Below, piece by piece: positions 21,274 through 43,857 of a stretch of 64,000 nucleotides of DNA. Each line of letters starts with the position of its first letter. Position 1 is the stretch's first letter. The stretch is taken from the NCBI GenBank assembly GCA_041650755.1, contig JBAZKN010000001.1, forward strand, positions 4,387-68,386. Direction: 5' to 3'. The DNA is from Patescibacteria group bacterium (GTDB lineage: Bacteria; Patescibacteriota; Patescibacteriia; UBA1558; GWA2-36-10). A model generated the notes under the pieces. It made no database searches, had not been told where the DNA came from, and saw only the letters and a program-made list of their open reading frames with translations. Both the position numbers and the translations under genes were made by a program.

Positions 21274-21349
21274 GCCGAGATAGCTCAGTTGGTAGAGCAG
21301 CGGTATCGTAAACCGCGGGTCGCAGGTTCGACTCCTGTTCTCGGCTCCA
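21274..21349 (+). tRNA. tRNA-Thr (anticodon CGU)
   Basis: 76 nt cloverleaf: acceptor GCCGAGA/TCTCGGC, D-arm GCTCAGTTGGTAGAGC, anticodon loop ATCGTAA, T-arm GCAGGTTCGACTCCTGT, encoded CCA. Confidence 0.9.
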
Positions 21350-21393
21350 CTCGACTCGTCGTCGTTTTACTCCTCCTCGTGAGACGAGACGAG

Positions 21394-21444
21394 TGTCCCG
21401 AACAGAGTCCTCGAGCGAAGTCGAGAGGGCGTAGTCGAGGGACA
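21394..21444 (+). repeat. 51-nt tRNA-trailer element, copy 1 (identical to 29129-29179)
   Basis: TGTCCCGAACAGAGTCCTCGAGCGAAGTCGAGAGGGCGTAGTCGAGGGACA; internally palindromic (GTCCC...GGGAC; CTCGA...TCGAG). Confidence 0.85.
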
Positions 21445-21504
21445 TTATCATAAAATTTTATTTACCCCGTTAGAAATTTACATTTTATTTCTAAAAGGGG
21501 TATA

Positions 21505-22965: not shown

Positions 22966-22990
22966 CAAAATTTTATTTTTACTATATAGT
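22963..22990 (+). promoter_or_regulatory. Sigma70-like promoter (TTGACA-16-TATAGT)
   Basis: Hexamers read at 22963-22968 and 22985-22990. Confidence 0.45.
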
Positions 22991-22996
22991 GGATAG

Positions 22997-23127
22997 TCAA
23001 CCTGTTCCCCTCGTATACAGTGCTATGCAATAGCGCTGGCCGTCAGGGAGGGGTGTACTCCCTCCAAACCCCCAAACCTCTTCCTGCGGCTGAGGTCCCG
23101 GGTGCCTTTTGGCCCGGGACTTTTTTT
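22997..23127 (+). ncRNA. Candidate small RNA 1 (~130 nt, GC-rich)
   Basis: No ORF; nested hairpins; ends in terminator GTCCCGGG-loop-GCCCGGGAC + T7; lies in 460-nt gap between aspS and scpA. Confidence 0.45.
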
Positions 23128-23134
23128 GTTTACC

Positions 23135-23163
23135 TTGACATATTATAAGTTTTAGTTTATAAT
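23135..23163 (+). promoter_or_regulatory. Sigma70 consensus promoter (TTGACA-17-TATAAT)
   Basis: Perfect hexamers at 23135-23140 and 23158-23163. Confidence 0.6.
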
Positions 23164-28962: not shown

Positions 28963-29048
28963 GGGTCGGTACCGAAGCGGTCAAACGGGGCAGACTGTAA
29001 ATCTGCTGGCATTAGCCTTCGGCGGTTCGAATCCGTCCCGGCCCACCA
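28963..29048 (+). tRNA. tRNA-Tyr (anticodon GUA), long variable arm
   Basis: 86 nt; acceptor GGGTCGG/CCGGCCC, anticodon stem GCAGA/TCTGC with loop CTGTAAA, variable stem-loop GGCATTAGCC, T-loop TTCGAAT, CCA. Confidence 0.85.
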
Positions 29049-29128
29049 CTCGACTCCCCTGCACCATATGGTGTAGGGTCGCTCATAGTCTTCGACCACT
29101 CTATTGTATATCAGTGTATGAAGTCGAA

Positions 29129-29179
29129 TGTCCCGAACAGAGTCCTCGAGCGAAGTCGAGAGGGCGTAGTCGAGGGACA
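29129..29179 (+). repeat. 51-nt tRNA-trailer element, copy 2 (identical to 21394-21444)
   Basis: Exact 51/51 identity by eye. Confidence 0.85.
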
Positions 29180-29204
29180 CGAGATATTTCATATTAATTT
29201 ATAT

Positions 29205-29280
29205 GCCGTCTTAGCTCAGTTGGTAGAGCAACGCCATGGTAAGGCGTAGGTCCGCGGTTCAAGCCCGCGAGACGGCTCCA
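29205..29280 (+). tRNA. tRNA-Thr (anticodon GGU); integration target of island
   Basis: 76 nt; acceptor GCCGTCT/AGACGGC, anticodon loop ATGGTAA, T-arm CGCGGTTCAAGCCCGCG, CCA; 3' 46 nt duplicated at 43514-43559. Confidence 0.9.
29235..29280 (+). repeat. attL: 46-bp direct repeat (tRNA-Thr 3' portion)
   Basis: CATGGTAAGGCGTAGGTCCGCGGTTCAAGCCCGCGAGACGGCTCCA identical to 43514-43559. Confidence 0.85.
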
Positions 29281-29309
29281 TAAATACTGCAACTAATGTT
29301 GGAGTATTT

Positions 29310-30206
29310 TTGTTTATGAAAATCAGTCTACTTTTACAAGAGTTTTGTGATTATTCCCAGTATATTAGGGGATACGCGACTACTACAATAGGCCGTTATA
29401 GGAGAGTAGTATTGTTGTTTTGTAAATACGCCGGCATAGAAGACATAGAGGAGATAAATGAAAGTAATGTCAGGAACTTCTTTTTTAATGGTCGTACAGC
29501 CAAAAGTTGGTCTTCTAACACCTTTGTTTGCTATCACAAGACACTGGTGGTGTTTTTTCGTTGGTGCGTAAAGGAGGGGCATATGGTGGCTAATTTGGCC
29601 CAAGACGTAGAAACTCCCAGAATAGAGAAGAGATTGCCTCCCAAACTCACAAAACAGCAGGCGCTTAGGCTTCTAGAGGTCGTATATAATTATCCTTATC
29701 AATACAAGTTTTTGCATTTTAGAAACCATGCTATTTTTGCCACCTTTTTATTTACCGGTATCAGAAGAAAAGAACTATTAAACTTGAAATATACTGACAT
29801 TGATCTTGAGAATCTGACGCTTTATGTAAGGCAGGGCAAGGGCAGTAAGGACAGGATTGTGCCACTAAATTATAAACTAGCTTCAATACTCCAGAAATAC
29901 AACCAGGAACGCTCTAGACTCAATAAGACATGTCCAGAGTTTTTTACTTCCCTAAACCGTAATATGGGGTTTAAGCAGATCGGTTTAAGGCGTTTGGTTG
30001 AGCAAGTTAGAAAGGTTTCTGGTATTAGTTTTAACGTCCATCGCCTAAGACATACTTTTGCTACCCTAATGTTAGAAGGTGGCTGTGATATTTATAGTTT
30101 ATCAAGGATAATGGGCCATAGCGACATTAAAACAACAACTATATATTTGGCGGCTAGTGGGGAGCATTTGAGACAACAAATAATAAAGAATCCTCTCGAA
30201 ATTTGA
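29310..30206 (+). CDS. int: Tyrosine-type site-specific integrase (XerC/D family)
   Basis: C-terminal catalytic RxxR...HRLRHTFA...LMGHSDIKTTTIY pattern (R-H-R-Y). Confidence 0.9.
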   Translation: MFMKISLLLQEFCDYSQYIRGYATTTIGRYRRVVLLFCKYAGIEDIEEINESNVRNFFFNGRTAKSWSSNTFVCYHKTLVVFFRWCVKEGHMVANLAQDVETPRIEKRLPPKLTKQQALRLLEVVYNYPYQYKFLHFRNHAIFATFLFTGIRRKELLNLKYTDIDLENLTLYVRQGKGSKDRIVPLNYKLASILQKYNQERSRLNKTCPEFFTSLNRNMGFKQIGLRRLVEQVRKVSGISFNVHRLRHTFATLMLEGGCDIYSLSRIMGHSDIKTTTIYLAASGEHLRQQIIKNPLEI

Positions 30207-30267
30207 ACCATAGACACTTATTGACTAACTCTCTTTTTAGGGCCATAATTAAAGCAAAATCTTTATT

Positions 30268-30909
30268 ATGGCAGTACCAATACCTCCACCAGATACATCT
30301 CAAACAACTTCCCTTATTGAGATACTAAAGCAGTTGGTTGGTTTAATTTTGGGATTATTGGGTGGAATTACTATTGAATCTACGTTGCATATCAGTCAAA
30401 AAATTATAAATAAAAATAGAATTAATTCGAAATCTAAAACAGGAGACCATAGTCCAGTAACGAATGTAGGCGTAACCGGGAATGATAATCAAGTTACTGT
30501 GAACACTAACAATGGTTTAGATAACAATGATCAAATAGATCAGGAAAAACTTTTTATCGGGAATGAAATAGATAAAATACTTATTTATAGAAAAATTAAC
30601 TTATTTTTTAGTCCTTGGTATAGGCAGGCTTACGTACAGTTAAATAAACATCTAGTATGTGCATCTGCTGCAGAATTTGCTAGGGCATTTTCAATAATCA
30701 AAGGGATATTTCTTGATCAGAATACTTATGACGGAGTTTTTGATCAAGAGGCACTTTCAATGATGGAGCACTCTTTTAATGAAATTGATAAATTCGTAAT
30801 TGATCAATCTAGTGACGAAAAACTGCTGTGTGGCATTATTAAAAATTTTGAAGCCGCTTTTTTTAGGTTAAAGAAGAATATAAATTATGAACCAGATAGA
30901 GTTACATAA
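30268..30909 (+). CDS. Hypothetical protein with N-terminal TM segment
   Basis: 213 aa; TM LIEILKQLVGLILGLLGGITI; end overlaps next ORF start. Confidence 0.55.
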   Translation: MAVPIPPPDTSQTTSLIEILKQLVGLILGLLGGITIESTLHISQKIINKNRINSKSKTGDHSPVTNVGVTGNDNQVTVNTNNGLDNNDQIDQEKLFIGNEIDKILIYRKINLFFSPWYRQAYVQLNKHLVCASAAEFARAFSIIKGIFLDQNTYDGVFDQEALSMMEHSFNEIDKFVIDQSSDEKLLCGIIKNFEAAFFRLKKNINYEPDRVT

Positions 30910-33868
30910 TAAAATATTAAAGATTTTAGCGGGTAATATTGGGGAAACAGATGCTGATGAGATTAAAAGCATAATTTCAACCAACGATGATGCTAGAAGA
31001 TATTTTTTCAGTAAGGCCGATGAAAAATGGCTTGTTTGGTTGTGGCAAAATGGGTTCATGGATGCCATTAAAGAAAAAATAAAAGATTCTTCATCGTATG
31101 CATATGCTAGCTCAGAACTAAATTATTTAGTAAAGGTAGCTGAAAAAGTTCCTGACGAAACAGCAAAAATTATATTGGAAGTGCCTGTTGAAGAAGGCTT
31201 TAACTCGGAAGTGGTAGATAGATTTTTATGGATTTGTAGTACAATGCCTGCACCGCAGCTTTCTAGGATAGTGCCAAAAATTCTAAATGAAAATTGGGTG
31301 ATTTTGATGAGCAGATTTAGAGATTGGGGGTTTGAATACGATAAAATGTTTCAGATCCTCGAAGGTGCTAAAGATTATGAAAGTATATTATTATTGGCCG
31401 AAGCTGTTCTATCAGTTAAGTCTCAAGAGGAATATCAAAGAGATGGTGTTTCGAGAGAGAGTCCATTTTATATAGAAAAATTATTCTACACAAAAGTTTT
31501 TGAACATCTTGTCAAATTACCAGTTAGCCATATAGAAAGAGCTTTGTCTTTAATAAATAAAACGATATTAAAAATTTCACTTATTAATTCGGAAGATAGT
31601 AGTAGCACTTTTTCAATTATTGATACTTTTTCTTATGGTATAGATTTTTTTTCTTTGAATCTTGGGGAGAATAAGCATGATCGATTTGGTGGAGATGTTC
31701 AAAATTTAATCGCTGCACTAAAACTGTTTTTAGAACGTTTCGTAAAAGATTGTATCAACAAAAGTGAAATTGAAAGGATTTATAATGAGTATATTTTTAC
31801 TTTACCTTCTTGTGAAGCAATGTGGCGTTTTCGATTATTCGCGCTTAATTTATCTTCTGAAATCTTCCAGAATAGTATAAAAGAGGAACTATTTTCTCTT
31901 TTCAATGGGAATCCATATGATAAATTGATTATTGAGTATCAAAAGTTATTAGGCTTGAATTTTTCCAATATGGCAGAAGTTGACAAGCGTAGTTACGTCG
32001 CTCAAGTTTTCGAATTTTTCGGAGCAAAAGTGGCAGATAAGAAAGAGCTTAAGTGGAATAAACAACGCGGATTAGAACTTTTGTCAAATATTTGTCGATA
32101 CTTAACTGATGAAGAGCTTTCAAAATGTGAAGATGTATTTGAAAAACAATGTATTCTTGACTATAAACCCGAGCCACTATTTCGCAAATTTTTCGCTGGA
32201 ACCGTAACTCCGATAGGTCCAATTAGCGCCGAAGAATTCACAAAATTTTCTATAAAAGAGATTGCGGAGAATTTGCGAAATAATTGGAGTCCGAAAAATT
32301 TATATAATAAATATAAAAATGATGATTTCCTAAAACCACGTAATGCTGAAGGAGTAGGTGAAATCTTAAAAAGTGATATATCTAAAAGATTGCAAGATTA
32401 TGTCTCAAATGCGGATTTATTTTTTGATCCTCAGTCTTTAGCGCCGCATTATTCTTATTCATTCTTTAGAGGTATTGAAACGGCAATAAAGGATAATATA
32501 GATACTGCAAAAAAAGTAGACTGGAGTATTTTAATTTCATTTTTAATTCGTATAAGAGGATTAGGTCAAGAAAATTTATCGAATGACGAAAAAGAAGAGA
32601 GAGAAGAATTTGATTCATGGTTAGCTGGATGGGATTCGGTGCATTCAGCTATAGTGGATGTTATACAGATTTTGATTGGTGAAGGAGAGGAAAAACATAT
32701 CATAAATTTTCCTAAGTATAGAGAGAAATTAATTCAGATTATAAGTTATTTACTTGAATATAAAGATCCAGTGCCCTCTGACGAAAATATTGAGACTGCC
32801 AAAATGAAAACTAGTGGAAGAGGCTCCAAAGATTACTTTGTAAGCGATCCATATTCGATGGCCATAAATACTGTTCGTGGAAGAGCATTTCAAGCACTTG
32901 TACTTTTTGTATATAGAGACGGCAAAGAGATAAGTAAAGATATAAAAAAAGAATACGAAACTGTTTTGAAAGACGAAAATACTCGCGCATTAATGTTTAT
33001 GTTCGGGAGATTTTTGCCATCCTTTTATCTAAGAGATAAACAATGGATTAAGGGTTTGTTGGAATTTATTTTTCCAATTGACCCAAGCAAGAATAATCTA
33101 TATTTGGCAGCATGGGAAGGCTATTTGACTGGCCCATTGTATGAACAAATTTTTGGAGATGAAGATTTTCAAAAACTATATTATAGAGGTTTGAGTGCAA
33201 ATAGTGGTCAGGATACTCATAGAAAATACGTGAAAGCGCCGGAAGAAGGGATAGCCGATCATTTGGCATTGGCATTCATGCATTATGAAAAGTTTGGATT
33301 TAGGAACAACTTATTTCGTGAATTTTGGAAAAGGCAGAACACCCGACGTGATGAATTCATCAGGTATTTGGGCAGCTTGTATATATCTGGTAGTAATGAT
33401 AATGCTGATAAACTACTAATTAAAAATCCTTTAGCTAAAAAAAGACTTGAAAAAATATGGGATTATGTACTTCAAAACTTTGAAGATCCAAAATTGTTTG
33501 AAAATTTTGGTTTTTGGATGAACATTGAAAAGAATGTGTTTGATGAAAAGTGGCTGGCAAAAAATATTGCAAAGACTCTAGAGAAGTCAAAAGGATCAAT
33601 TACGTGGGATTATGGGTTAACAAAATCTATAACTAGGTTAGCAGAGATTGCTCCAGAAGATTCACTTTTAATAACAAGATATTTCTTCTTTGAAGGAATG
33701 AAAGAAGAAAAGCGTAGGCCATTTTATTTAGATGATGAATGGATACAAACGTTCAAAATTTTATATAAAAATCCGATTACAAAACAGGGTACATACAAAC
33801 TTATAGATGACCTTATTCGTGAAGGTGGTAGCGTTTTTTGGAAGTTAGAAGATTTATTCAATTTATAA
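30887..33868 (+). CDS. Large hypothetical protein (993 aa), predicted all-alpha, no recognisable catalytic motif
   Basis: Long uninterrupted ORF, no Walker or nuclease motifs seen by eye; island cargo. Confidence 0.7.
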   Translation: MNQIELHNKILKILAGNIGETDADEIKSIISTNDDARRYFFSKADEKWLVWLWQNGFMDAIKEKIKDSSSYAYASSELNYLVKVAEKVPDETAKIILEVPVEEGFNSEVVDRFLWICSTMPAPQLSRIVPKILNENWVILMSRFRDWGFEYDKMFQILEGAKDYESILLLAEAVLSVKSQEEYQRDGVSRESPFYIEKLFYTKVFEHLVKLPVSHIERALSLINKTILKISLINSEDSSSTFSIIDTFSYGIDFFSLNLGENKHDRFGGDVQNLIAALKLFLERFVKDCINKSEIERIYNEYIFTLPSCEAMWRFRLFALNLSSEIFQNSIKEELFSLFNGNPYDKLIIEYQKLLGLNFSNMAEVDKRSYVAQVFEFFGAKVADKKELKWNKQRGLELLSNICRYLTDEELSKCEDVFEKQCILDYKPEPLFRKFFAGTVTPIGPISAEEFTKFSIKEIAENLRNNWSPKNLYNKYKNDDFLKPRNAEGVGEILKSDISKRLQDYVSNADLFFDPQSLAPHYSYSFFRGIETAIKDNIDTAKKVDWSILISFLIRIRGLGQENLSNDEKEEREEFDSWLAGWDSVHSAIVDVIQILIGEGEEKHIINFPKYREKLIQIISYLLEYKDPVPSDENIETAKMKTSGRGSKDYFVSDPYSMAINTVRGRAFQALVLFVYRDGKEISKDIKKEYETVLKDENTRALMFMFGRFLPSFYLRDKQWIKGLLEFIFPIDPSKNNLYLAAWEGYLTGPLYEQIFGDEDFQKLYYRGLSANSGQDTHRKYVKAPEEGIADHLALAFMHYEKFGFRNNLFREFWKRQNTRRDEFIRYLGSLYISGSNDNADKLLIKNPLAKKRLEKIWDYVLQNFEDPKLFENFGFWMNIEKNVFDEKWLAKNIAKTLEKSKGSITWDYGLTKSITRLAEIAPEDSLLITRYFFFEGMKEEKRRPFYLDDEWIQTFKILYKNPITKQGTYKLIDDLIREGGSVFWKLEDLFNL

Positions 33869-33912
33869 GATTATTATACGAAAGATAACTTGCATATTCT
33901 TTTATTTGTAAT

Positions 33913-34476
33913 ATGGTTGCCGCCAAAATTAAAGATCTAGCTAAAAAATTATTGGCCGAAAAAGATTTTGAAAATATCTTAAAGTTGATAGAAGATTTTA
34001 ATCAGCCACAATGTAGAAGAAGAGCCAGAGATGAATTAATGGCATTTGTTGGCGTCGTGCCAAAGAGACCATTGTATTATGTCGTCGCCAATATTATTCA
34101 TCTGCCTGATTTTGGAACTAGAGATATAATCCGTTATTTAGGAGATTATATTGACCAGATAGTTAGGTTTACCCTGGAAGAAAAAAATTTTTTGTCGAGA
34201 TGGTCGAAGAGGCCGCTCGGACCAAACATCATAAAATTAAAAAAATATATAGACAATGACCTTTATGAATGTTTGTGTTTATTTAATTTGATATATACGC
34301 AAGCAAAACATGACTTTAATCATTATAAAGACGAAAGCCTATTTGATTACAAGGACGCAATTTATGTGATATTTATTACTAAGCGATTAGCAAATAGATT
34401 ACTGCCCCTCTCTGAAAAAGCGAGAGATTATAATAATAGTGGTAAAACTCTTTATAAATACGATCCAGTGGAATAA
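33913..34476 (+). CDS. Hypothetical protein (187 aa)
   Basis: ORF with terminator-like hairpin downstream (AAATCGCCTAAATGGGCGATTT + T-run). Confidence 0.55.
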   Translation: MVAAKIKDLAKKLLAEKDFENILKLIEDFNQPQCRRRARDELMAFVGVVPKRPLYYVVANIIHLPDFGTRDIIRYLGDYIDQIVRFTLEEKNFLSRWSKRPLGPNIIKLKKYIDNDLYECLCLFNLIYTQAKHDFNHYKDESLFDYKDAIYVIFITKRLANRLLPLSEKARDYNNSGKTLYKYDPVE

Positions 34477-34665
34477 AATAAATCGCCTAAATGGGCGATT
34501 TTTGGTTTTTATAATTTTCAGGATTATTCCGCATATCTATTTCAAGAAGTAGTTGAAAAAAATTGATGAACTGAGTTCCTTGGCTGTATGCTTCCTCGCG
34601 ACTGATTTCTTTTCCGTGTACTTCTTTATAAATTTTTTGATATTCACTTATACTATCTTTGGGAA

Positions 34666-35112
34666 TCATTTCCCAATGTATTCTTTTATTGCCTGTTTAT
34701 AACCATCTCGCATATTTAAGCCATCTATTTCATCTATTGATACCCATCTATATTCCGAGTATTCATTATTTTCCATAATTTTATTTTCGTGTGAAATGCA
34801 GATATAAATTTTAACAGTAAATTGATACTGTGTTGCATTTACTTCTGAAGAAAAATTCCATGGTTCCAAAGCTGTCTTGATTTCAAAATTTTCCCAGCCT
34901 AGCTCTTCTTTGAGCTCTCTTTTCAGTGTTTTTTCTGGAGTCTCATCGTTCTCCATACGTCCACCGGGCATCTCCCAGACGCCCTTATGATCCTTCACTA
35001 AAAGGATTTTTTTATCCTCCTCAAATAGTGCTTTTACTGTGGTTTTTTCTATTTTTTTAGTCAAATTCATACATTGACATAGTAAACGTTTTCTGGTATT
35101 TTGTAAAGTCAA
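34666..35112 (-). CDS. NUDIX hydrolase
   Basis: Nudix box PGGRMENDETPEKTLKRELKEELGW (GGx5Ex7REuxEExGu); track start is TTG at 35112, alternative ATG at 35070. Confidence 0.85.
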   Translation of the reverse strand: MTLQNTRKRLLCQCMNLTKKIEKTTVKALFEEDKKILLVKDHKGVWEMPGGRMENDETPEKTLKRELKEELGWENFEIKTALEPWNFSSEVNATQYQFTVKIYICISHENKIMENNEYSEYRWVSIDEIDGLNMRDGYKQAIKEYIGK

Positions 35113-35151
35113 AGTCGTTTGACCATGTACCTTAACAAGGAGTAGATAGAC

Positions 35152-35958
35152 ATGAGGATCAAATATAGTGATCCGCAGGTCCAGTACGGGACTGCCCGTA
35201 ATCTACTCAACAGAGAGCTTGCTTGGGATAAATACGGCGTCGGCGCTGGTAAATATGGCATAGACTTCATCAACTTCGAGGGAAATGAGCTGGTACTTGA
35301 TGCCGGTTCAGGAACTGGAAGGGACGTTGCCATAATTAGCCAACGGCTGAACAAAGGCGGAAAAGTCTTTGCCGTAGACATCTCGCAAGCACTGTTGAGT
35401 ATCACCTGTCAGAGGGCTTGTAACACAATCACCACACCCCTGTGCGCTATTGCGTCAATTGAGAGTCTGCCTTTCGGCGATGGTCAATTTGATGTAGTAG
35501 TCGCCAAGCACGTCCTTAACCATGTCGATGATCTTGAGCGTGGAATGAGAGAAACACAGCGAGTAGTGAAGAGGAGGGGAAAAGTAGTAGTCACGACTGG
35601 CGTTAAGACGCCCGATGACGATCTGCTGAGAGTGTGCCACCAAGAAGCAATATCGCGTGTTGGCATCGAAACCACTGTGCGTCTTTCTCGTTCTCCTTTC
35701 CATTGTGGAAACGCTAGAGAGTACCTCAGTAGTCTCTTCGGAGACGTGAGATATCACTTCTACGGTTTCCAGATGGCGTTCCCTGACGTGGGTAGCTTCA
35801 TGTTGTATTACACGACACTGCCAAGCTTTCAGGAGTCCACCAGCGATCCGGCAACAAAATCTACTCTGGCGGCAGAAATGAGAAGCTTACTGGCCAGTAG
35901 AGAAATGCCGATCGTCTTGGATCGGTCACGCGGAACTTTCGTCTGCACCAAAATCTAG
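35152..35958 (+). CDS. Class I SAM-dependent methyltransferase
   Basis: Motif I VLDAGSGTGRD, acidic loop, motif LPFGDGQFDVVVAKHVLNHV; GC-rich; AAGGAG SD. Confidence 0.85.
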   Translation: MRIKYSDPQVQYGTARNLLNRELAWDKYGVGAGKYGIDFINFEGNELVLDAGSGTGRDVAIISQRLNKGGKVFAVDISQALLSITCQRACNTITTPLCAIASIESLPFGDGQFDVVVAKHVLNHVDDLERGMRETQRVVKRRGKVVVTTGVKTPDDDLLRVCHQEAISRVGIETTVRLSRSPFHCGNAREYLSSLFGDVRYHFYGFQMAFPDVGSFMLYYTTLPSFQESTSDPATKSTLAAEMRSLLASREMPIVLDRSRGTFVCTKI

Positions 35959-35970
35959 GAGGAGAGAGCG

Positions 35971-37053
35971 ATGTCAGTAAGAATCGGCATCGTCGGTGCA
36001 GGCGTGATGCTCAAGTACCAAGTAAACGGATTCCGTTTAGCTGGTGCTGAGATAACCTGCATTGCCGATCCAGACCAAGCTGCTGCCCAAAAGGCGGCTA
36101 CTCAGTGGGAGATTCCTCGGACCTTCACCTCTCTTGAGACAATGTTAGAGTCAGCATCTTCGGATGTTGACGCTATCAGCGTTCTCACGCCGCCGGTGTG
36201 CCACATGAACCTTGCAATCCAAGCTCTTCGAGCTGGAAAGCACGTGTTTTGCGAAAAGCCGCCGGCCATGAACGCTGGGCAGGTTCGAGAGATGGCAGAG
36301 GTAGCTCAGGCTTCAGGTCTTCATCTTCTGTTTGATTTCAACAATAGAGCGCGACCGGAAGCAGAGGAGATCATCCGACGTATTAACGAGGGATTCTTCG
36401 GGCGAATCAACTCCGCTCAAGCCGTTTGGGTTCGTAGATCAGGTATTCCGGCTTTCGGAAGCTGGTTTACAATCCGGGAGAAAGCTGGGGGCGGTGCGTT
36501 GATTGATCTGATGCACATGCTCGATTTGGCTCTGTACTTCATGGGTTACCCCAAGCCGAAACACGTGTTGGGTCAAACTTTTAATGACTTCATGGACGAC
36601 CCTTCACGCCGGGGAACCTACGGAGTAGCCAAGAGAGACGGTGCTGCAGATGTTGAGTCGAGTGCTCACGCCTTCATCACCTTCCAAACCGGACAAGTTC
36701 TTACAGTCCACACTTCATGGGCTGAGATGGTCCGAGAAGAGCAGTGCTTCGTAGTTCTCCAAGGTCAGAAACTCGGAGCTAAGGTTTCAAGGCTGTTTCA
36801 AAGCAATACCTGTGATAGCATCACCGGTACTTGCGAGCTGTACTCTCAGGAGTCAGGACAGCCGAGAAACCAAGGCATTACGGTGCCTTTCGACGGTTCA
36901 ATGGGACGCGTAGCTGCTGCAAGCAACTTCGTGGAAACTCTGCAAAGACAGGCTGAACCGCTGACTACTCCCTTTGAAGCCTGCAGGCTGATGAGCATCG
37001 TCGATGCCATCTATATGTCGGCTAAAAAGGGGGGGCCGGTGGAACTCGACTGA
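35971..37053 (+). CDS. Gfo/Idh/MocA-family NAD(P)-dependent sugar oxidoreductase
   Basis: N-terminal Rossmann IGIVGAGVM, conserved EKP motif (FCEKPPAMN); GGAGG SD. Confidence 0.9.
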   Translation: MSVRIGIVGAGVMLKYQVNGFRLAGAEITCIADPDQAAAQKAATQWEIPRTFTSLETMLESASSDVDAISVLTPPVCHMNLAIQALRAGKHVFCEKPPAMNAGQVREMAEVAQASGLHLLFDFNNRARPEAEEIIRRINEGFFGRINSAQAVWVRRSGIPAFGSWFTIREKAGGGALIDLMHMLDLALYFMGYPKPKHVLGQTFNDFMDDPSRRGTYGVAKRDGAADVESSAHAFITFQTGQVLTVHTSWAEMVREEQCFVVLQGQKLGAKVSRLFQSNTCDSITGTCELYSQESGQPRNQGITVPFDGSMGRVAAASNFVETLQRQAEPLTTPFEACRLMSIVDAIYMSAKKGGPVELD

Positions 37054-37073
37054 AAAGTCGGAAAGGAACTACG

Positions 37074-38249
37074 ATGTTTCGACGCATCATTATCTTAGTG
37101 ATGGATAGCGTCGGCATCGGCGCTCAGCCTGACGCAGCAGACTACAAGAGCGTTGGCGCTAATACCTTCCATCACGCAGCTGAAGCACACCAGGATTTCA
37201 GGGTTCCCAACCTTGAGAAACTGGGTTTCGGTAACATCGTCGGAGTAAGTTGTATCCCGACCGTTCATCGACCTCTTGCGCACTTCGGGCGCATGATGGA
37301 AACGACGTCGGGAAATGACACCTTCGCCGGCATCTGGGAAATGGCAGGCGTTACTTTTACAGAACGATTCGCATCGTTCTACCCCAAGATGTCGCTTGAC
37401 TTGGTGCAGCAAATGCAACAGGCCATAGGCACCCTTACGCTCTGTAACGCCTACATCTCTGGTTTCAAGGTGTTTGACGAATACGCCGACCAACACTTCG
37501 CAACAGGTCAGCCTATTGTCTACACCTGTGACGATGGGGTGGTCTTAGTAGCAGCTCACGAAGGTGTTGTTCCACCAGCTAGGCTACATGAGATTGCCCG
37601 GAAGATGTCTCGTTTCTTTATCGGGAAGAACGTCACGAGAATCATCGCCCGAGCTTTTATCGGTGAAAAGGATAACTTCGTCCGCACCGAGAATCGGGCC
37701 GATATTATCGTGCCGCTTAATAAGAGTTGTGAACACCTATTCCAACGGATTCGAGAAGTCGGAATGCCTTTTACGGCTACTGAACACCTCGCTTCGGTGA
37801 TAGGCAGTGAGTTCGTCACCGAAGTAATACCTGGGATTATGGATTCGGCTGGTGTTATGGATTCTGTCCTGGAATACCTGAGAGTTGGTAAAGATGGCGT
37901 GGCTATGTTCGTTGTGCCAGACTTTGATATGTCTGGCCATGCTCGTAAACCCCGTCAATACGCTCTCGACCTTATGTACTTCGATCAGAGACTTGGCGAG
38001 GTTTTGCCGATGATCAACTGCGATGACCTTCTGTTGATTGTGGCTGATCATGGCTGTGATCCGGTTATAGCAATTCGGGGGCATACTCGAGAGTACGTGC
38101 CACTTCTAGTACTGGATGGCAACGGTGGTTCTAGCTCAGACCTGGGAACCAGGACGAGCTTTGCCGATCTAGGCCAGACTATCTGTGGTTTGATAGGAGC
38201 CAATCCCATTCCTCTTGGCGAAAGCTTCGCCGGCATCCTTAAGGAGTGA
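37074..38249 (+). CDS. Phosphopentomutase-like (DeoB family, alkaline-phosphatase superfamily) phosphosugar mutase
   Basis: N-terminal IILVMDSVGIGAQPDA...GANTFHH matches DeoB N-terminus (VLDSFGIGA...GADTLGH); 391 aa. Confidence 0.8.
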   Translation: MFRRIIILVMDSVGIGAQPDAADYKSVGANTFHHAAEAHQDFRVPNLEKLGFGNIVGVSCIPTVHRPLAHFGRMMETTSGNDTFAGIWEMAGVTFTERFASFYPKMSLDLVQQMQQAIGTLTLCNAYISGFKVFDEYADQHFATGQPIVYTCDDGVVLVAAHEGVVPPARLHEIARKMSRFFIGKNVTRIIARAFIGEKDNFVRTENRADIIVPLNKSCEHLFQRIREVGMPFTATEHLASVIGSEFVTEVIPGIMDSAGVMDSVLEYLRVGKDGVAMFVVPDFDMSGHARKPRQYALDLMYFDQRLGEVLPMINCDDLLLIVADHGCDPVIAIRGHTREYVPLLVLDGNGGSSSDLGTRTSFADLGQTICGLIGANPIPLGESFAGILKE

Positions 38250-38251
38250 TC

Positions 38252-39403
38252 ATGCACGAAGAACCTTTGCTGGCAATAAACGGTGGAAAAGCCGTTTATC
38301 CAGGAAGCCTCAAACGAGGTCGGGTCTTCGGTGAAGAAGAGCGGCAGGCCGTCTGGGAGGTAATGGGAAAGGGCGTAGTCTCAAAAGCTGGCATGGGTGA
38401 AATGGTGCAACGGTTTGAATGGGAATTCGCCGCTTATCACCAGATGCCCTACGCCATAGCGACCACGTCCGGTACCAGTGCCCTTCACACGGCTGTCGAC
38501 GCTTTGCAGATAGGCCCGGGAGACGAAGTCATTGTCCCTGACTTGACCTTCGTTTCCACAGCTTCAGTAGCTTTACAAGCGGGAGCGAAAGTCGTCTTCT
38601 GTGACATTGACCTCGACACCTTCAACCTGTCCGTGACTGATCTCAAAGCGAAGATAACCCCCCGTACCAAAGCAGTGATCGTGGTACATCTGTACGGCAG
38701 ACCCGCCGATATGGACCAGATCCTGCAACTGACAACAAAACACGGTATTCGTCTGATCGAAGACTGTGCTCAGGCCCATGGAGCCACCATCTGCGGGCAA
38801 CTCGTAGGAACGTTCGGTGACTTGGCTTGCTACAGCTTCTATCAGACGAAGAACATGAGCTGTGGAGAAGGGGGAATGGTCATTACCGCTAATGAGGAGC
38901 TGGCTCAAAGATGCAGGTCTTTGACCCGACACGGACTTATCGGCGATGACTTGGGTGTCTACAACTACGATAAGCTTGGCTACAACTACGCAATGACTGA
39001 GCTTCAGGCGGCAATTGGTATTGTGCAGTTGCGTAAACTCGCAACTCTCAACCATTACCGTCGTCAGAATGCCAAGCTCTACCGTGAAGGGTTGGACACT
39101 CTCCCGTTGCACTTCCAGGAAGACGCGGATGGTCACGTGGACCACTGCTTGACTGCAGTTCTTCCAGCTGAACTATCGCGTGAATGGTTTCTTAAGGCTG
39201 TGAGAGCTGAAGGGGCAATGGTCAACTGCCTTTATCCGTTAGCATTGTCGAGAACAGCGATATTTGTCGGCTCCAATCAGCCTACAGTATCGCATCGAGT
39301 CGCGACGTCACTGTTCAACCTTTACACCAACCCTGACGTGTCCTACGCCTTCGTAGAAGTGTGTTGCACAGCCATACGCAAGGTGTTGGGCTACGGGAGG
39401 TGA
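38252..39403 (+). CDS. DegT/DnrJ/EryC1/StrS-family PLP-dependent sugar aminotransferase
   Basis: TSGTSALH, DEVIVPDLTFVST, PLP-lysine context SFYQTKNMSCGEGGMV; start codon overlaps upstream stop (AGGAGTGATCATG). Confidence 0.9.
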   Translation: MHEEPLLAINGGKAVYPGSLKRGRVFGEEERQAVWEVMGKGVVSKAGMGEMVQRFEWEFAAYHQMPYAIATTSGTSALHTAVDALQIGPGDEVIVPDLTFVSTASVALQAGAKVVFCDIDLDTFNLSVTDLKAKITPRTKAVIVVHLYGRPADMDQILQLTTKHGIRLIEDCAQAHGATICGQLVGTFGDLACYSFYQTKNMSCGEGGMVITANEELAQRCRSLTRHGLIGDDLGVYNYDKLGYNYAMTELQAAIGIVQLRKLATLNHYRRQNAKLYREGLDTLPLHFQEDADGHVDHCLTAVLPAELSREWFLKAVRAEGAMVNCLYPLALSRTAIFVGSNQPTVSHRVATSLFNLYTNPDVSYAFVEVCCTAIRKVLGYGR

Positions 39404-39406
39404 GTC

Positions 39407-40321
39407 ATGAAGCACTTGTCCTATGTTGAGGCTGCTGATATGGCACACCTCTTGGCCCTCAAACAAGAGCGTCAGATCACGATCAGTTTAGCTCTCCCCG
39501 TCAGAAACGAGGAGGCGACCATTGGTCGTGTCATCGAGTGTGCCAGATCGTGCCAGCCGTTAGTTGACGAGATTATCGTCTTGGACAGCGGTTCTACCGA
39601 CAACACGCGGGAGGTGTGTTCAAGGTTAGGACTGGATGCGATCCCTGACGAACAGTTGGCCAAGGCCATGTCTATCCCTCTAGCCAGAGGAAAAGGATGG
39701 AATCTGTGGAGCAGTGTCTACTTCACGCGCGGTGATGTCATCGCCTGGATTGACACTGACATAGAGAACATCCATCCGCGCTTCATCCAAGGAATCGTCG
39801 CTCCTTTCCTGATGGATCCCGAGGTGATCTTTGCCAAAGGTTACTACAAGCGACCCAAGGGTGATGCCCGGGTGACCGAGATTCTTGCTCGGCCTTTCCT
39901 CAACATGCTGTTTCCCGAAGCTGCGAGTTTCATACAACCGTTGGCGGGGGAATACGCTGGGACTCGCGAGTTCCTCGAGAAAGCCACTTTCTACTCCGGG
40001 TATAGTGTAGAGGTGGCTATTCTGCTCCAAGCAGTACTTGAGTATGGACCGGAGAGAATCACCCAAGTGTTCCTCGACCAGCGGGTACATCCGCTTCAAG
40101 ATGTCCCGTCGCTTGGCAGGATGGCAGGTAGCATCCTGTACACTCTCCTGCATCTAGCTGAGCACTACAAGCGATTGACGCTTCAAGTGGATGTTCAGCA
40201 GGAAATGAGGGTGTTCAACGCCACCATCGATGGCGACAAGAACATCACCTCGGAAACGCTCAACGTCGCAGACACCGCTCTTCCTCGTGTGGTTGACCTT
40301 CCCAACTACCGGGAGAGGTAG
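39407..40321 (+). CDS. Family 2 glycosyltransferase (glucosyl-3-phosphoglycerate synthase-like)
   Basis: ISLALPVRNEE...EIIVLDSGSTDNT and DTD motif; GGAGGTGAGTCATG coupling to upstream gene. Confidence 0.85.
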   Translation: MKHLSYVEAADMAHLLALKQERQITISLALPVRNEEATIGRVIECARSCQPLVDEIIVLDSGSTDNTREVCSRLGLDAIPDEQLAKAMSIPLARGKGWNLWSSVYFTRGDVIAWIDTDIENIHPRFIQGIVAPFLMDPEVIFAKGYYKRPKGDARVTEILARPFLNMLFPEAASFIQPLAGEYAGTREFLEKATFYSGYSVEVAILLQAVLEYGPERITQVFLDQRVHPLQDVPSLGRMAGSILYTLLHLAEHYKRLTLQVDVQQEMRVFNATIDGDKNITSETLNVADTALPRVVDLPNYRER

Positions 40322-40336
40322 TCTGCACAGACAAAA

Positions 40337-40385
40337 GGGCCCGATGAACGAACATAACATTCTGACATCCGGGCCCTTTGAATTT
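40337..40385 (+). terminator. Rho-independent terminator ending GC-rich operon
   Basis: GGGCCCG-loop-CGGGCCC followed by TTTGAATTT. Confidence 0.7.
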
Positions 40386-40394
40386 GATAAAAAA

Positions 40395-40949
40395 TTATCT
40401 AAGTTCTCTATAATAATCGAAACTATTTTTAGTTAAAGATAAATTGAGTGGTAATTGCTCATTTTTTTGTTTATCATCTAATTCGGCTCGCATTTTCCCA
40501 AAATCCATACATCTACGCAGGTAATGTGGGATAGATGGGTCGATTTTTATAATTGCGGAGTATAAATTTTTTCTAGAAAAACTATTTAATCTGTTTTTTA
40601 CTATTAAGTTTGTCAGTTTTGGCACTAAATGGGGATTACCTAGCCGACATATGATATACGCTCCAACAGTGATATCCTCACCTAGAATAATGGTGGCCTC
40701 AAATAAGTGATCTGCTTTTTGGTATATGTCACTTTTTGGTACTTTATTCCAAACAAAACTAGCCATTTCATATTCATCAACTGGATTAATATCAAAGTTA
40801 ATGTTAAATGTTTTTGGTCTAGGCGTGCCAACAAAGCCAACGTCATCTTGATAATTGCTGGTAAAATAAGCCGGCATGGCTCTTTCGGCACTTGTAATTA
40901 AATCGTATATGGATGTAATTACAATTTTTTTCTTATTTGGCCAAAGCAT
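40395..40949 (-). CDS. Hypothetical protein (184 aa)
   Basis: AT-rich ORF within island. Confidence 0.55.
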   Translation of the reverse strand: MLWPNKKKIVITSIYDLITSAERAMPAYFTSNYQDDVGFVGTPRPKTFNINFDINPVDEYEMASFVWNKVPKSDIYQKADHLFEATIILGEDITVGAYIICRLGNPHLVPKLTNLIVKNRLNSFSRKNLYSAIIKIDPSIPHYLRRCMDFGKMRAELDDKQKNEQLPLNLSLTKNSFDYYRELR

Positions 40950-40957
40950 AATAAAAA

Positions 40958-41170
40958 TTATTTTCTAGTGTAATAAAGGATAACTGTAGTATTCAAAAAC
41001 ATCATTAGAATTACTCCTATAAACATTAAACCACCAGATGGTACTTGTGCCAAGGAAAGGAACCAAAATTCTCCAAATTCGAAAATAACAAACAAGAATC
41101 CGCCAATTAAAATCAAATTAATTAAAGTGTACAAGATGATACTTAACTTGGCTGTTTTCTCTTTAGTCAT
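40958..41170 (-). CDS. Small membrane protein (70 aa, 2 TM)
   Basis: Two hydrophobic helices; 8-nt gap to downstream gene. Confidence 0.5.
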   Translation of the reverse strand: MTKEKTAKLSIILYTLINLILIGGFLFVIFEFGEFWFLSLAQVPSGGLMFIGVILMMFLNTTVILYYTRK

Positions 41171-41411
41171 AAATTTGAATTAATGATACAAAAAAGGCCT
41201 CGCGCCAGTTGGCAACCCCTTGCGGTGTTACCACTACGCCCTTTCAGGCATAGACCTATCCTACAAGTACCGGTCACGAGACCATCTCTGTGTAGGATAG
41301 GTATTTGAAGCCATGCTCCAAAAATGGAGTTTAGGCCTTTTAATTGTAAGTTGAGTTTATCAAAAAAGAGCTATTTATTCAAGCTGGCGACTTGTTTATC
41401 AATAATATAAG

Positions 41412-42071
41412 GTGTATGATTTTATTAGTTATATGAATCAGATAGAGTGTACAATTAACGTCATGAATCTTCTTCTTTCTCAGTGGATGTTTTTTGATCA
41501 AATTAGTAATCCATTTTTTTATATTGATATAGATATATTTGCTGATGCCGCTGGTGGCCGCGCTAATCTGGTGAAAATAATTGAGGATTTTGAAAGGAGG
41601 AAGTGCGTAAAAAATGTTAGAGGGGTTAATGATACTTCAGAGTGGCGTACCATAATTTTATCTAACGGCGATAGATTGTCACTAAATATAATGCAAGATA
41701 ATTTAGAATATTATAGAGAAGTTTTGAAGAAAAATATCGCTAATAAAAATATCAGTTTAAGTAATTTTGATATTTCTTATGATGAAGATAGAAAAATATT
41801 AATAATTGGTAATGAGGAAATTTTGATAGATAATTCAACCAACCAAGATTATTTATGTAAAATCATGTTTAAGAGGGGGGTTGGTGTGCCAGTATATTGG
41901 GTGGATATATATGAAGCAATTCAAGGTGGGCACGAGCCAGAGAATGATAAAAAATGTAAGAAGATAATAGAAGATACGGTTTATATGGTTAACAATAAAG
42001 TCAGGGGGCTTATAGGAACCAATGATTTGTTATTTCGCAGTAACAAGGGCTATATAATAAGACAATATTGA
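41412..42071 (+). CDS. Hypothetical protein (219 aa)
   Basis: AT-rich ORF within island. Confidence 0.55.
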   Translation: MYDFISYMNQIECTINVMNLLLSQWMFFDQISNPFFYIDIDIFADAAGGRANLVKIIEDFERRKCVKNVRGVNDTSEWRTIILSNGDRLSLNIMQDNLEYYREVLKKNIANKNISLSNFDISYDEDRKILIIGNEEILIDNSTNQDYLCKIMFKRGVGVPVYWVDIYEAIQGGHEPENDKKCKKIIEDTVYMVNNKVRGLIGTNDLLFRSNKGYIIRQY

Positions 42072-42386
42072 TAAAATACGATCCGTAAGTGGGCCGTATA
42101 GAGCTGTTTTATAGTTAAAGTGATTATACTTTAACTTTTTTGTTTTTGTTGGAGTTCTATTAAAAACGTCCTAATAACAGGGGGTGAAGTACTAAAAATA
42201 AAAAATCTTAGTATTAATACCCCCACTACATATTAGTGTTTTTGTAAAAGTTGAAAATAAAACGGTATTAAGCAGAGGGAGTGATGCCTTGCACTCAATT
42301 TATTGTTCATTTGATACAAATTTAACAGGGTGCGACATGTAAGATATATAGGTTTTAATAGGCGAAAACGTATTTTATGGCTCAAA

Positions 42387-43373
42387 ATGCCAAAATACAA
42401 AAAGTACGTAAATGACACAAATTATATGGTTGAAATTAAGGAAATAATAAGCAAATTTATGGATCAGAAGGAATTTGCTGAAGATCGCTCAAAAGCCACG
42501 ATAGATAATTATCATTGGGTTTTTAAGCATTTATTACAATTAATGCCTGAAATCAAAGTCTTGAATGACATTAATCATGACAATGTGGTCGAATTTTTGA
42601 AAAGAGTCAGTACTAGAGAGAAAACCGTGGGCCATGAAAAGGTAGTGGGTATAAGCACCAGTACTAAAAGGACTTATATTAGTAAATTAAATACTTTCTG
42701 CGTGTGGTTGAATAGGAATGGTTATAAAAGAGATAATCCTATGGATAAGGAGAGTATGCCGCGCCCAAAGATTATATATAAAAATAGGAAATACTTGGAT
42801 TTAGATCAGGTAAGAAGGATATTGGTAGCCATTAGTCATAATATACGTTGGAGCAGTAATTTTATTAAAGCCAGAAATGAATTGATAATAGTTTTGGCCA
42901 TTACTTGTGGTTTGAGAAGATCTGAGTTATTAGGCATAACTTTGTCAGACATAGATTTAGATAATCGTAAAATTACTATTAGAGGGGTGACATCAAAGAG
43001 TAAAAAAACTAGATTTTTACACATTAATGCTTGGTGTATGGATATATTAAAAAAGTATCTATTGGAGAGGCGTAATAAACATTATAAAAATCCACATTTG
43101 TTTGTTTCTGATATGGTTGATAGGCCCTTTACGACACATGGGTTAAAGCACATGTTGAAAAAGGTAGAGAATACCTCTGGCATTGATTTTCACATGCACA
43201 ATTTCAGGCACACGTTTGCCTATATTTTGAAAAAAAACAACACAAACACTTCTTCGATACAGAATTTGTTGGGGCACAGTGCCGTGCAACATACTCAAAA
43301 ATATCTAGAAAATTTTCCAGATGACGAAAATGATAAATATATTGATCAAGTCACCCTTCAAAATCTTAAATAA
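42387..43373 (+). CDS. int: Tyrosine-type site-specific integrase (second copy)
   Basis: C-terminal HNFRHTFAYIL...LLGHSAVQHTQKY (R-H-R-Y catalytic pattern); start taken at MPKYKKY, track start 42330. Confidence 0.85.
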   Translation: MPKYKKYVNDTNYMVEIKEIISKFMDQKEFAEDRSKATIDNYHWVFKHLLQLMPEIKVLNDINHDNVVEFLKRVSTREKTVGHEKVVGISTSTKRTYISKLNTFCVWLNRNGYKRDNPMDKESMPRPKIIYKNRKYLDLDQVRRILVAISHNIRWSSNFIKARNELIIVLAITCGLRRSELLGITLSDIDLDNRKITIRGVTSKSKKTRFLHINAWCMDILKKYLLERRNKHYKNPHLFVSDMVDRPFTTHGLKHMLKKVENTSGIDFHMHNFRHTFAYILKKNNTNTSSIQNLLGHSAVQHTQKYLENFPDDENDKYIDQVTLQNLK

Positions 43374-43513
43374 TTGTGCTAATATGATAATAGAAATAAT
43401 TAAAATTAGTTGTAGTGTAAACGGGTCATTGCCACGGCATAAAAATTTTAATAGTTTTTCCAAATTATTCCCTAAGATTAGCTGAGGACAATAGAATCAG
43501 CACAGCGACCATT

Positions 43514-43559
43514 CATGGTAAGGCGTAGGTCCGCGGTTCAAGCCCGCGAGACGGCTCCA
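43514..43559 (+). repeat. attR: 46-bp direct repeat of tRNA-Thr(GGU) 3' end
   Basis: Identical to 29235-29280. Confidence 0.85.
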
Positions 43560-43857
43560 TTCGACTCCATCCCGCTTTGCGTGACTTCGCTCGTGGTCTA
43601 CGTTCTCGGCTTTGCCTTGAACTCCGACCACCATAAAGAGGCGAGTGTCACGAGTGAATTAAGCGCATCGAGGGGCACGAGATAAAATAATAAGTGGAAT
43701 AAAAATCAGCACTGTTAGCTGGTTTTTTAATATTTATCCCCAAGTTTGCGGGTGTTTTTTTATTTTTTTATGATGACTATGGTATAATATAATATATAAA
43801 AGTTGATTGCTTGACAATTTTTTGTAATTATACTATAATATAAAATTAAGATTAATT

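Follow-up and report, generated by a model that had tools for sequence, protein, structure and literature searches.

A modular hairpin element family at tRNA and tmRNA 3' ends, linked to genes for small GIY-YIG nucleases

The stretch of DNA analyzed here, 64,000 nucleotides from a Patescibacteria group bacterium (GenBank assembly GCA_041650755.1, contig JBAZKN010000001.1, positions 4,387 to 68,386 of the forward strand; hereafter the window), carries three tRNA genes whose trailers form a set of related, structured elements. The tRNA genes were called with ARAGORN, with Rfam tRNA matches in addition for tRNA-Thr(CGU), and the DNA beyond the window was read on the same contig (ENA ERZ27247363 k141_2241731), about 104 kb in total. 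Copies in the window and upstream of it begin with YTCGACTC right after the CCA, are GC-rich and span 95-170 nt. A complete element reads, in order after the CCA, as a start motif X, hairpin 1 (hp1), TCGCTC followed by a purine (R), hairpin 2 (hp2), a linker, the motif X' followed by R, then TG, and a last hairpin module, hp3. The four copies (T0 to T3), their tRNA genes and their parts lie as follows.

21274..21349, + strand: tRNA-Thr(CGU) (ARAGORN, Rfam tRNA); its CCA at 21347-21349 adjoins element T1
21350..21444, + strand: element T1, a deletion derivative without TCGCTC and the hp2 centre (two deletions in the alignment to T0); start motif X (CTCGACTC) at 21350-21357, hairpin arms at 21354-21370 and 21379-21394, X' (GAGACGAG) at 21386-21393, then TG
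21394..21444, + strand: the 51-mer, which is hairpin module hp3 of T1 (exact repeat, fold, and homology to the hp3 of the family); stem GTCCC/GGGAC, 5' loop strand GAACAGAG, 3' loop strand GCGTAGTCGAG, nested hairpin TCCTCGAGCGAAGTCGAGAGG at 21408-21428
28963..29048, + strand: tRNA-Tyr(GUA) (ARAGORN); its CCA adjoins element T2
29049..29186, + strand: element T2, the full architecture with every part present; X at 29049-29056, hp1 at 29057-29078, TCGCTC at 29079-29084, hp2 at about 29085-29100, X' (GAAGTCGAA) at 29120-29128, hp3 51-mer at 29129-29179, tail CACGAGATA at 29178-29186
29205..29280, + strand: tRNA-Thr(GGU); an integrated island now lies 3' of the gene in place of its own element
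43514..43559, + strand: displaced 3' part of tRNA-Thr(GGU), acting as the right attachment site, attR (47-nt exact direct repeat)
43560..43684, + strand: element T3, a diverged copy; X (TTCGACTC) at 43560-43567, TCGCTC at 43587-43592, hp2 at 43593-43631, X' (GAGGCGAG) at 43638-43645, short hp3-like module at 43646-43677, tail CACGAGATA at 43676-43684
4016-4190 of locus L010, same contig, about 6 kb upstream of the window: element T0, the fourth copy, 3' of tRNA-Lys(UUU)

Across the roughly 104 kb, each of the four tRNA 3' ends, three in the window and one upstream, bears an element directly after the CCA, and no copy of the full element was found elsewhere in that DNA. A reading of the window that preceded this work (the original prediction) had noticed YTCGACTC after the CCA in three tRNA contexts, and this is borne out at 21347, 29046 and 43557, three matches against none in 100 shuffles. 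The identical 51-nt sequence it reported behind tRNA-Thr(CGU) and tRNA-Tyr is an exact match at 21394-21444 and 29129-29179 (two occurrences, none expected), and the likeness of T1 and T2 around it reaches 58 nt at 97%. Its proposal that the trailer at 43560 originally belonged to tRNA-Thr(GGU) also stands, as a 47-nt exact repeat brackets a 14.2-kb island with an integrase gene; the end of that trailer, noted there as a diverged version of the 51-mer, is the short hp3-like module of T3. When folded, as had been proposed, the window trailers prove structured and more stable than their shuffles (z -1.9 to -2.6). Behind tRNA-Lys(UUU), T0 reads CTCGACTCGTCGTCG..., then the 51-mer with two substitutions and then the tail CACGAGATA; T0 and T3 have long hp2 hairpins, T1 has lost the TCGCTC/hp2 centre, and a tail of the form CACGAGAYA ends the copies in AT-rich genomes (T0, T2, T3 and a copy in locus L018). 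Two of the finer claims had to be revised. The complementarity of AGTCGAG in the 51-mer to the leading CTCGACT is real, but a better-supported partner lies just 5' of the 51-mer (GAGACGAG, GAAGTCGAA and GAGGCGAG in the three trailers), and the tRNA-like CTCGACTCCCCTGCACCA of the tRNA-Tyr trailer consists of the conserved start plus one hairpin arm (CCCTGCACC/GGTGTAGGG) and is no tRNA remnant.

The window trailers belong to a widespread family. We ran the junction pattern GGTTCGANTCC-N11-CCA-YTCGACTC on JGI metagenomes; all junction counts given here cover the matches listed. At least 120 metagenome contigs matched, with the same architecture 3' of tRNA or tmRNA genes of GC-rich bacteria, and 5' of the element stand at least 6 tmRNA genes as well as tRNA genes of 14 or more isotypes. 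Among trailers with enough sequence, 87 of 116 have TCGCTC(A/G)TGG within 120 nt and 53 of 116 have the hp3 module as a 3' hairpin. Conversely, TCGCTCRTGG occurs 96 times in the 622 kb that we fetched, 87 of them within an element starting right after a CCA, the rest being mostly extra tandem copies. The junction matches are therefore one family and not chance, a modular palindromic element family specific to tRNA and tmRNA 3' ends that includes the window trailers. Its members are only 80-180 nt long, always lie on the tRNA strand and always begin at the first nucleotide after the CCA (an apparent opposite-strand copy in locus L079 was an artefact of a palindromic array). The original prediction was thus right to call the trailers conserved, structured and specific to tRNA 3' ends, but not in considering them specific to one lineage or, as discussed below, remnants of attachment (att) sites.

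Parts of the element also occur by themselves: modules are found solitary (L001, L002, L012), in arrays (L079, L129) and nested, as in the 51-mer. A search with an exact 24-mer of the 51-mer, in a collection of one genome per species that does not include the species studied here, returned only two solitary modules, in other AT-rich metagenome-assembled genomes and neither next to a tRNA. About 8 kb past the 3' end of the window, on the window contig, a solitary short module (GCGGCTCGTCCCGAGCGTAGTCGAGGGACGAGCCGC; L012 1945-1980, - strand of L012) sits in a terminator-like position between two convergent genes with no tRNA near; the hairpin module also stands alone in this genome. The contig of a near-identical strain (L004, Logan SRR8542065) starts at its position 1 inside the T1 51-mer, which is consistent with the repeat breaking short-read assemblies. 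The junction pattern also matched one phage tRNA cluster, where a 118-nt spacer follows tRNA-Ser(GCU) among 21 tRNAs (L013 3621-3738, - strand, phage contig IMGVR_UViG_3300006875_000065). This spacer starts TTCGACTCC and ends GACACGAG, has no TCGCTC motif, and resembles the 3' part of T3 (AGGCGGGTGTCGTGAGGTG... compared with AGGCGAGTGTCACGAGTG...); it may be a distant family member carried by a phage. We did consider that the trailer start might be a leftover tRNA T-loop and 3' half or a permuted tRNA, and the L013 spacer does read as T-loop, stem, acceptor and GCCA. This was rejected because the acceptor part is unlike that of the adjacent tRNA, no 5' half lies downstream, and a start variant with A/U only keeps the architecture.

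We did not find the family catalogued. Rfam 15 covariance models run on the trailers and 20 related loci returned only tRNA, tmRNA and unrelated families, and a BLAST search of one element against plasmid and phage collections matched the tmRNA end only. No description of a hairpin element at tRNA or tmRNA ends with a GIY-YIG gene was found in Rfam or the literature searched, where the one relevant paper was that on the Ssn nucleases discussed below. The original prediction had also raised membership in a known IS/MITE family as one way in which it could fail; a repeat family is near to what we see, yet this one is tRNA-associated and we did not find it in the catalogues above.

Within the family, X is YTCGACTC(G), hp1 is a hypervariable, near-perfect GC hairpin, hp2 takes the form (R)TGG...CCA(Y) with a loop that is not conserved, and X' is (C)GAG(N)CGA, followed by R and then TG. 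The hp3 module has a stem of 4-6 bp (NCC-Y / R-GGN) around GAGCGA, a mini-hairpin (hp4) and GAGTCGA, where hp4 is either GCGNAGC, with A..U in place of G..C in some copies, or else a variable hairpin of greater length; the window 51-mer is an hp3 with a further hairpin of the same kind, TCCTCGAGCGAAGTCGAGAGG, in the hp4 position. The basic module can be described as a short GC stem (NCC-Y...R-GGN) and the purine-rich strands GAGCGA and GAGTCGA with a variable mini-hairpin between them. Pairing is conserved beyond the sequence itself. In the helix formed by (C)CA plus X with X' plus TG, 80% of cells are paired, compared with 28-35% when the partner is slid, and double-sided changes number 44 compared with 20 in shuffles, none of 500 shuffles reaching as high. 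The helix runs on past the fixed 8 nt with differing sequences (GGTCGC/GCGACC, GGCCTGCG/CGCAGGCC, GCGCG/CGCGC). The first element nucleotide covaries with the last base of X' (TA 35, CG 8, other 2) and with the R after TCGCTC (TA 72, CG 12, other 4), and the closing Y and R of hp3 form a covarying pair of their own (TA 38, CG 5, other 2). Two tmRNA loci and the relative L006 have a variant X (AAUUUUUUGC) with a matching variant X' (GCAAAAAAUU) while keeping the CCA:UGG bracket and hp3, so it is the architecture that is conserved, and the likeness of X to a T-loop is incidental. These patterns place the family under structural selection.

The left domain, CCA-Y-TCGAC...GCTC-R-TGG, is approximately the reverse complement of hp3, NCC-Y-GAGC...GTCGA-R-GGN, and at one locus (L115) the left and right arms are exact complements over 22 nt. 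Because of this relation the element reads as an inverted doublet of one module, with hp2 and the linker separating the halves. On this sequence-based reading the module adjoining the tRNA would lie on the bottom strand, with the complement of the tRNA's own CCA (TGG) as part of its stem, and the top-strand module would be hp3, i.e. the 51-mer in the window. Folding and strand comparisons were made on 45 elements, with RNAfold for arm pairing. The left arm pairs with the right arm in 32 of them, and X pairs with X' in 10. Folding energy of the whole element is the same for the sense and antisense strands (-52.1 and -52.6 kcal/mol), yet the halves differ: of the 45 elements, 40 have a left domain that is more stable as the bottom strand and 37 an hp3 that is more stable as the top strand, and the bottom strand is favoured for hp1 (24 vs 11), the top strand for hp4 (13 vs 1). 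Together these folding results speak for a structure that works as single-stranded DNA, with one module on each strand, over a structure that serves as one RNA.

A second line of evidence comes from what lies behind the elements. At about 22 junction loci, roughly one in five of the matches listed, an open reading frame (ORF) of 81-116 residues follows just downstream on the same strand, with the GIY-YIG domain (Pfam PF01541) as its only domain; NCBIfam models gave no match on these proteins. These loci were found with a hidden Markov model built from the downstream ORFs, and a protein-side search was run to escape the bias of the DNA pattern. The latter yielded 168 homologues, with Deltaproteobacteria, Candidatus Binatia and Gammaproteobacteria metagenome-assembled genomes among the named sources, and each of the four independent homologue loci that we fetched follows a tRNA-Ala (two loci) or a tmRNA (two loci) at a distance of 100-130 nt, with an element between. 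The family is tied statistically to small GIY-YIG nuclease genes. In several loci hp3 ends 4-30 nt ahead of the GIY-YIG start codon, and arrays of three or four modules can stand between the tRNA and the nuclease gene. Contigs holding most of the homologues are only 1-3 kb long.

Comparison with relatives bears on whether the trailers are ancestral. By homologues of the AspRS (aspartyl-tRNA synthetase) encoded next to the tRNA, the organism falls within Patescibacteria, near Candidatus Komeilibacteria. In three syntenic relatives (AspRS 76-80% identical) the same tRNAs are followed directly after the CCA by AT-rich DNA, so the trailers are insertions in this lineage and not ancestral flanks. 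Relatives L006-L008 have a small GIY-YIG ORF between tRNA-Tyr and tRNA-Thr(GGU), preceded in L006 by a short hairpin related to the 51-mer. T0 (tRNA-Lys) and T1 (tRNA-Thr(CGU)) are near-identical save for two deletions, and T1 and T2 (tRNA-Tyr) share the exact 51-mer with the remainder differing; this near-identity and the exact 51-mer indicate recent copying or gene conversion between different tRNA genes of this genome. Presence or absence in relatives, together with solitary, arrayed and nested modules, amounts to the behaviour of a repeat element.

We lean, if only a little, towards interpreting these sequences as a REP/REPIN-like or Ssn/SRM-like family of single-stranded DNA hairpin repeats tied to GIY-YIG nucleases. 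The modules would act as single-stranded DNA hairpins recognized by the small single-domain GIY-YIG nucleases that are often encoded just behind them, and the same nucleases would probably spread or homogenize the modules, in parallel to REP/REPIN sequences with RAYT transposases and to Ssn nucleases with SRM hairpin repeats. The four copies of this genome, with no nuclease gene in the roughly 104 kb, would then be non-autonomous and recently copied between tRNA genes. As for the position, the CCA may complete the module stem or serve as the target, and we speculate that a highly transcribed tRNA gene may expose the folded single strand and offer a harmless landing site. We regard as doubtful a stronger version, in which the family would be actively mobile DNA with a specific target site, the CCA end of whatever tRNA or tmRNA gene, would take the CCA into its own stem and would be moved by a single-domain GIY-YIG single-stranded DNA nuclease of ~90 residues.

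The closest parallel is with Ssn, 94-residue single-domain GIY-YIG proteins (CDD cd10448) that bind NTS/SRM hairpin repeats as single-stranded DNA only and in one orientation, cutting a few nucleotides upstream (Chenal et al. 2025, PMC11893778). They cut single-stranded DNA next to the hairpin repeats, not double-stranded DNA or RNA, and the NTS/SRM repeats flank the ssn gene and reach up to hundreds of copies, for which the authors draw the REP/RAYT analogy (PMC11893778). Hairpin repeats (20-50 nt in Ssn) that are found elsewhere in the genome too, an orientation given by non-palindromic flanks, and a sequence conserved across phyla are shared with our family. A single-domain GIY-YIG gene of about that size next to the repeats is seen at the roughly 22 junction loci and in relatives L006-L008, but not in the window or its flanks. 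The systems differ in that our repeats lie only on the upstream side of the nuclease gene, make up an inverted doublet into which the tRNA CCA is drawn, and have a copy number that appears to follow the tRNA genes, with no spread over hundreds of sites; neither tRNA nor tmRNA is mentioned in that paper (0 occurrences in PMC11893778).

With REP, REPIN and BIME sequences the family shares short imperfect palindromes, inverted doublets folding into a longer hairpin, arrays, nested copies, strand-specific modules, and a majority of nuclease-less copies with an occasional single-domain nuclease gene. The doublet character of REPINs is seen here in a left domain that approximates the reverse complement of hp3, in the 32 of 45 arm-to-arm folds and in the opposite strand preferences. 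The enzyme, however, is GIY-YIG, whereas RAYT is an IS200/IS605-like Y1 HUH transposase, and no RAYT- or TnpA-like transposase gene was found beside the elements in the annotated loci, where the ORFs are GIY-YIG. There is no GTAG-type 5' tetranucleotide, and the elements are confined to tRNA and tmRNA 3' ends, whereas REP sequences occupy general extragenic sites. The R-TGG at the hairpin foot complements CCA-Y, which is suggestive of the guide and cleavage-site logic of IS200/IS605, by analogy only as no HUH enzyme is present. Free-standing GIY-YIG homing endonuclease genes occur in tRNA clusters (PMC13096335). Phage T4 SegB is an example; Seg proteins are larger and have DNA-binding domains, unlike the GIY-YIG proteins here, and we know of no palindromic repeat family associated with them. 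Most element copies, unlike Seg genes, come without any ORF. What such genes have in common with our loci is a gene parked among or behind tRNAs and a selfish-gene logic. Hairpin repeats with a dedicated small nuclease are thus already known, as REP/RAYT and, since 2025, as SRM/Ssn, and the new and testable part is the specificity for tRNA ends.

Several observations count against a nuclease-linked DNA repeat. The strand asymmetry could partly be a by-product of the left arm complementing a purine-rich right arm in one long hairpin. The SRM motif (HGTCWY N0-2 YYVSBRH N0-5 WNVSBRG N0-2 RNCYNB) had no match on either strand of the 45 elements, the three trailers and the window, and the same search did match the NTS sequence used as a control. 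The nearest solved relatives of the GIY-YIG proteins are UPF0213 proteins (BH0048 and EF2693, E ~1e-14), so that they are at most candidate members of Ssn proper (cd10448). No GIY-YIG gene was found within the window or its 20 kb of flanks (~104 kb of this genome), and neither a target-site duplication nor a clean empty and filled pair at close evolutionary distance was found. The junction pattern fixed the first 8 nt, which biases the sample toward one subtype. Nuclease activity and binding by the proteins, and transposition of the elements, are putative. Finally, constant co-orientation and presumed co-transcription with the tRNA also fit a role at the RNA level.

That role is the likeliest of the alternatives, although we judge it unlikely. 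A co-transcribed trailer would pair the CCA end (CCA:UGG plus X:X') and then form hp3, serving in tRNA 3' processing or protection, in termination or in insulation, and before a GIY-YIG gene it could be a structured leader that separates the tRNA from the mRNA or controls translation. It accounts well for an element that is always on the tRNA strand from the first nucleotide after the CCA, for the compensatory changes in the helices, including tandem G.A-compatible X' variants such as GGAGAA, for trailers that beat their shuffles in folding, and for the short distance (4-30 nt) that separates hp3 from the GIY-YIG start codon at several loci, where GAAGG, in the 3' strand of hp3, stands a few nucleotides ahead of the start codon. 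There is precedent, too, in the theta ribozymes found right after tRNAs (PMC10879173). Yet the sense strand has no folding advantage over the antisense strand, hp1 and the entire left domain are more stable on the antisense strand, no U-tract follows the hairpins 3', no Rfam family matched, and solitary modules occur away from tRNAs. Close relatives also lack the element behind these tRNAs, which means that tRNA maturation can proceed without it. The original prediction had offered a tRNA 3'-processing or termination structure as one of two readings; nothing found in our sequence comparisons directly supports such a role. An RNA with a more specific task, a new ribozyme that would free the tRNA-CCA by cleaving itself at the 5' end and function like the hepatitis delta virus (HDV)-like theta ribozymes, seems very unlikely to us. 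It would have P1 starting at the first nucleotide after the CCA and TCGCTCR pairing with YGAGCGA as a second helix in a pseudoknot, and the order X, Y, X', Y' does reproduce the HDV-like P1/P2 topology, with a paired and covarying first nucleotide in the position known from theta ribozymes. However, no ribozyme family matched even at E<=10, the first nucleotide is C or U and not G, L3/P1.1 is not conserved, a J4/2 cytosine could not be identified, the X' pairing crosses the putative cleavage site into the CCA, the TCGCTC strand is wholly absent from the A/U-type variant and from the deletion copy T1, and the strand asymmetry runs contrary to it. Threading L013, L030 and the window copies on P1-P2-P3-P1.1-P4 ended in rejection of HDV-like or theta membership, as P2 was too short or misplaced, L3 was not conserved and the first nucleotide was not G. 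Theta ribozymes (Kienbeck et al. 2024, PMC10879173) resemble our elements in being structured, within ~1 nt of the tRNA 3' end, with the first helix at the junction; they differ in that our elements match HDV-like models in neither sequence nor structure, that the doublet and strand data point to DNA, that the tRNAs here encode CCA compared with only 4.5% of theta-associated tRNAs, and that our elements sit in bacterial chromosomes, whereas the search in that study found no tRNA-associated theta ribozymes in bacterial genomes. We keep the ribozyme as a low-probability analogue only.

The other reading offered in the original prediction, that the trailers are scars of integrase-mediated integrations, either att remnants or island ends, is already largely refuted and in our estimation extremely improbable. 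tRNA and tmRNA 3' ends are classical integration sites, there is an island in tRNA-Thr(GGU) of this very window, and a second tRNA 3' end lies downstream in L019, L026, L120 and L128. But a single start sequence and architecture stands behind tmRNA and many unrelated tRNAs (at least 14 isotypes), the element start is no copy of the 3' end of the adjacent tRNA, a variant start keeps the architecture, compensatory structure is retained despite a size of 80-180 nt, and no integrase is associated with the element. Islands at the same address, the 3' end of tRNA or tmRNA genes, duplicate part of the tRNA and carry an integrase, whereas the elements do neither and are themselves displaced by islands, as T3 was. 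No direct repeat of the tRNA end was found at trailers T0-T2, and the only integrase of the window belongs to its separate island. Of 125 junctions, only 4-5 have a downstream repeat of the tRNA end, and there the element looks to have been displaced by an ordinary island, as for T3; duplication of the tRNA 3' end as a target site by the element itself was rejected on the same count. The second tRNA or tmRNA 3' ends (T-loop to CCA) in L019 (~3131-3175), L026 (~1236-1265), L120 and L128 lie downstream of the element or of the element and GIY-YIG gene, and have the look of att repeats from ordinary islands. The upstream 'tRNA' of L120 and of L128 is just a fragment, whereas in L019 and L026 the repeats bracket only the element and nuclease gene, 460-590 nt.

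The island is not part of the element family, and its coordinates are these.

29281..43513, + strand: integrated island, 14.2 kb, which displaced T3
29310-30206: integrase ORF, the first gene of the island
29235-29281 and 43514-43560: att direct repeats, 47-nt exact

The island is a mosaic in GC content, with flanks at ~32% and a core at 35000-40400 of 47-53%, and it contains a LOOT RNA match (RF03000) at 41211-41337 on the - strand, scoring 70 bits where the gathering score is 46.4. An integrase directly behind tRNA-Thr(GGU) is seen in relatives L007 and L008 too, and in L005 only an island-end-like remnant (GAAATACTGCAAC...) is left there. In L007, just past the GIY-YIG stop codon (18537-18565), there is a fragment of tRNA-Thr(GGU) running from the D-arm to the anticodon loop and ending CATGGTAA; it lies ~120 nt upstream of the intact gene, and its end coincides with the start of the att identity of the island, which suggests an old rearrangement by the integrase of the island. 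Elsewhere in the window, a second short repeat, TATTTACCCCGTTAGA(A/T)AT(T/A)TACA, occurs at 21459-21482 and 51507-51530 (92% identical); the first copy belongs to a hairpin, CCCCGTTAGAAAT...ATTTCTAAAAGGGG, with TATAAT behind it, shortly before AspRS, and the repeat could be a promoter, an operator or a member of another repeat family. Between AspRS and scpA (22966-23358) runs a long non-coding stretch that is GC-rich and has no Rfam match. In the region downstream of AspRS in four relatives, including L005, L006 and L007, only a short block, (T)CCCTCCAA, and a terminator-like hairpin are conserved, and a small RNA that carries a CU-rich, anti-Shine-Dalgarno-like motif is one possible explanation. 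A 194-nt patch of >62% GC at 14158-14351 had no Rfam match at E<=1. Large ORFs further downstream than the tRNA locus hold dockerin-like repeats (DxNGDGxVNLTD) at 45933-47820, with a 192-nt tandem pair at 45933-46124 and 46167-46358 of 98% identity.

To the extent that Rfam and the literature searched cover it, a family that sits at the exact CCA end across distant phyla, takes the CCA into its own stem and comes with a minimal GIY-YIG nuclease has not been described. For annotation, evidence is needed before such trailers are taken for tRNA processing signals or att sites. Should the nuclease link prove functional, the family would offer a simple, testable system for site choice by a 90-residue protein and a DNA hairpin, it might supply new nucleases that are specific to single strands and have defined targets, and it would explain recurrent contig breaks and odd 'tRNA trailers' in metagenome-assembled genomes. 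If the mobile-element reading proves true, it would be a GIY-YIG counterpart of REP/RAYT with a universal, structure-defined target, and would give Ssn-like nucleases a biological role in many phyla, the candidate phyla radiation included.

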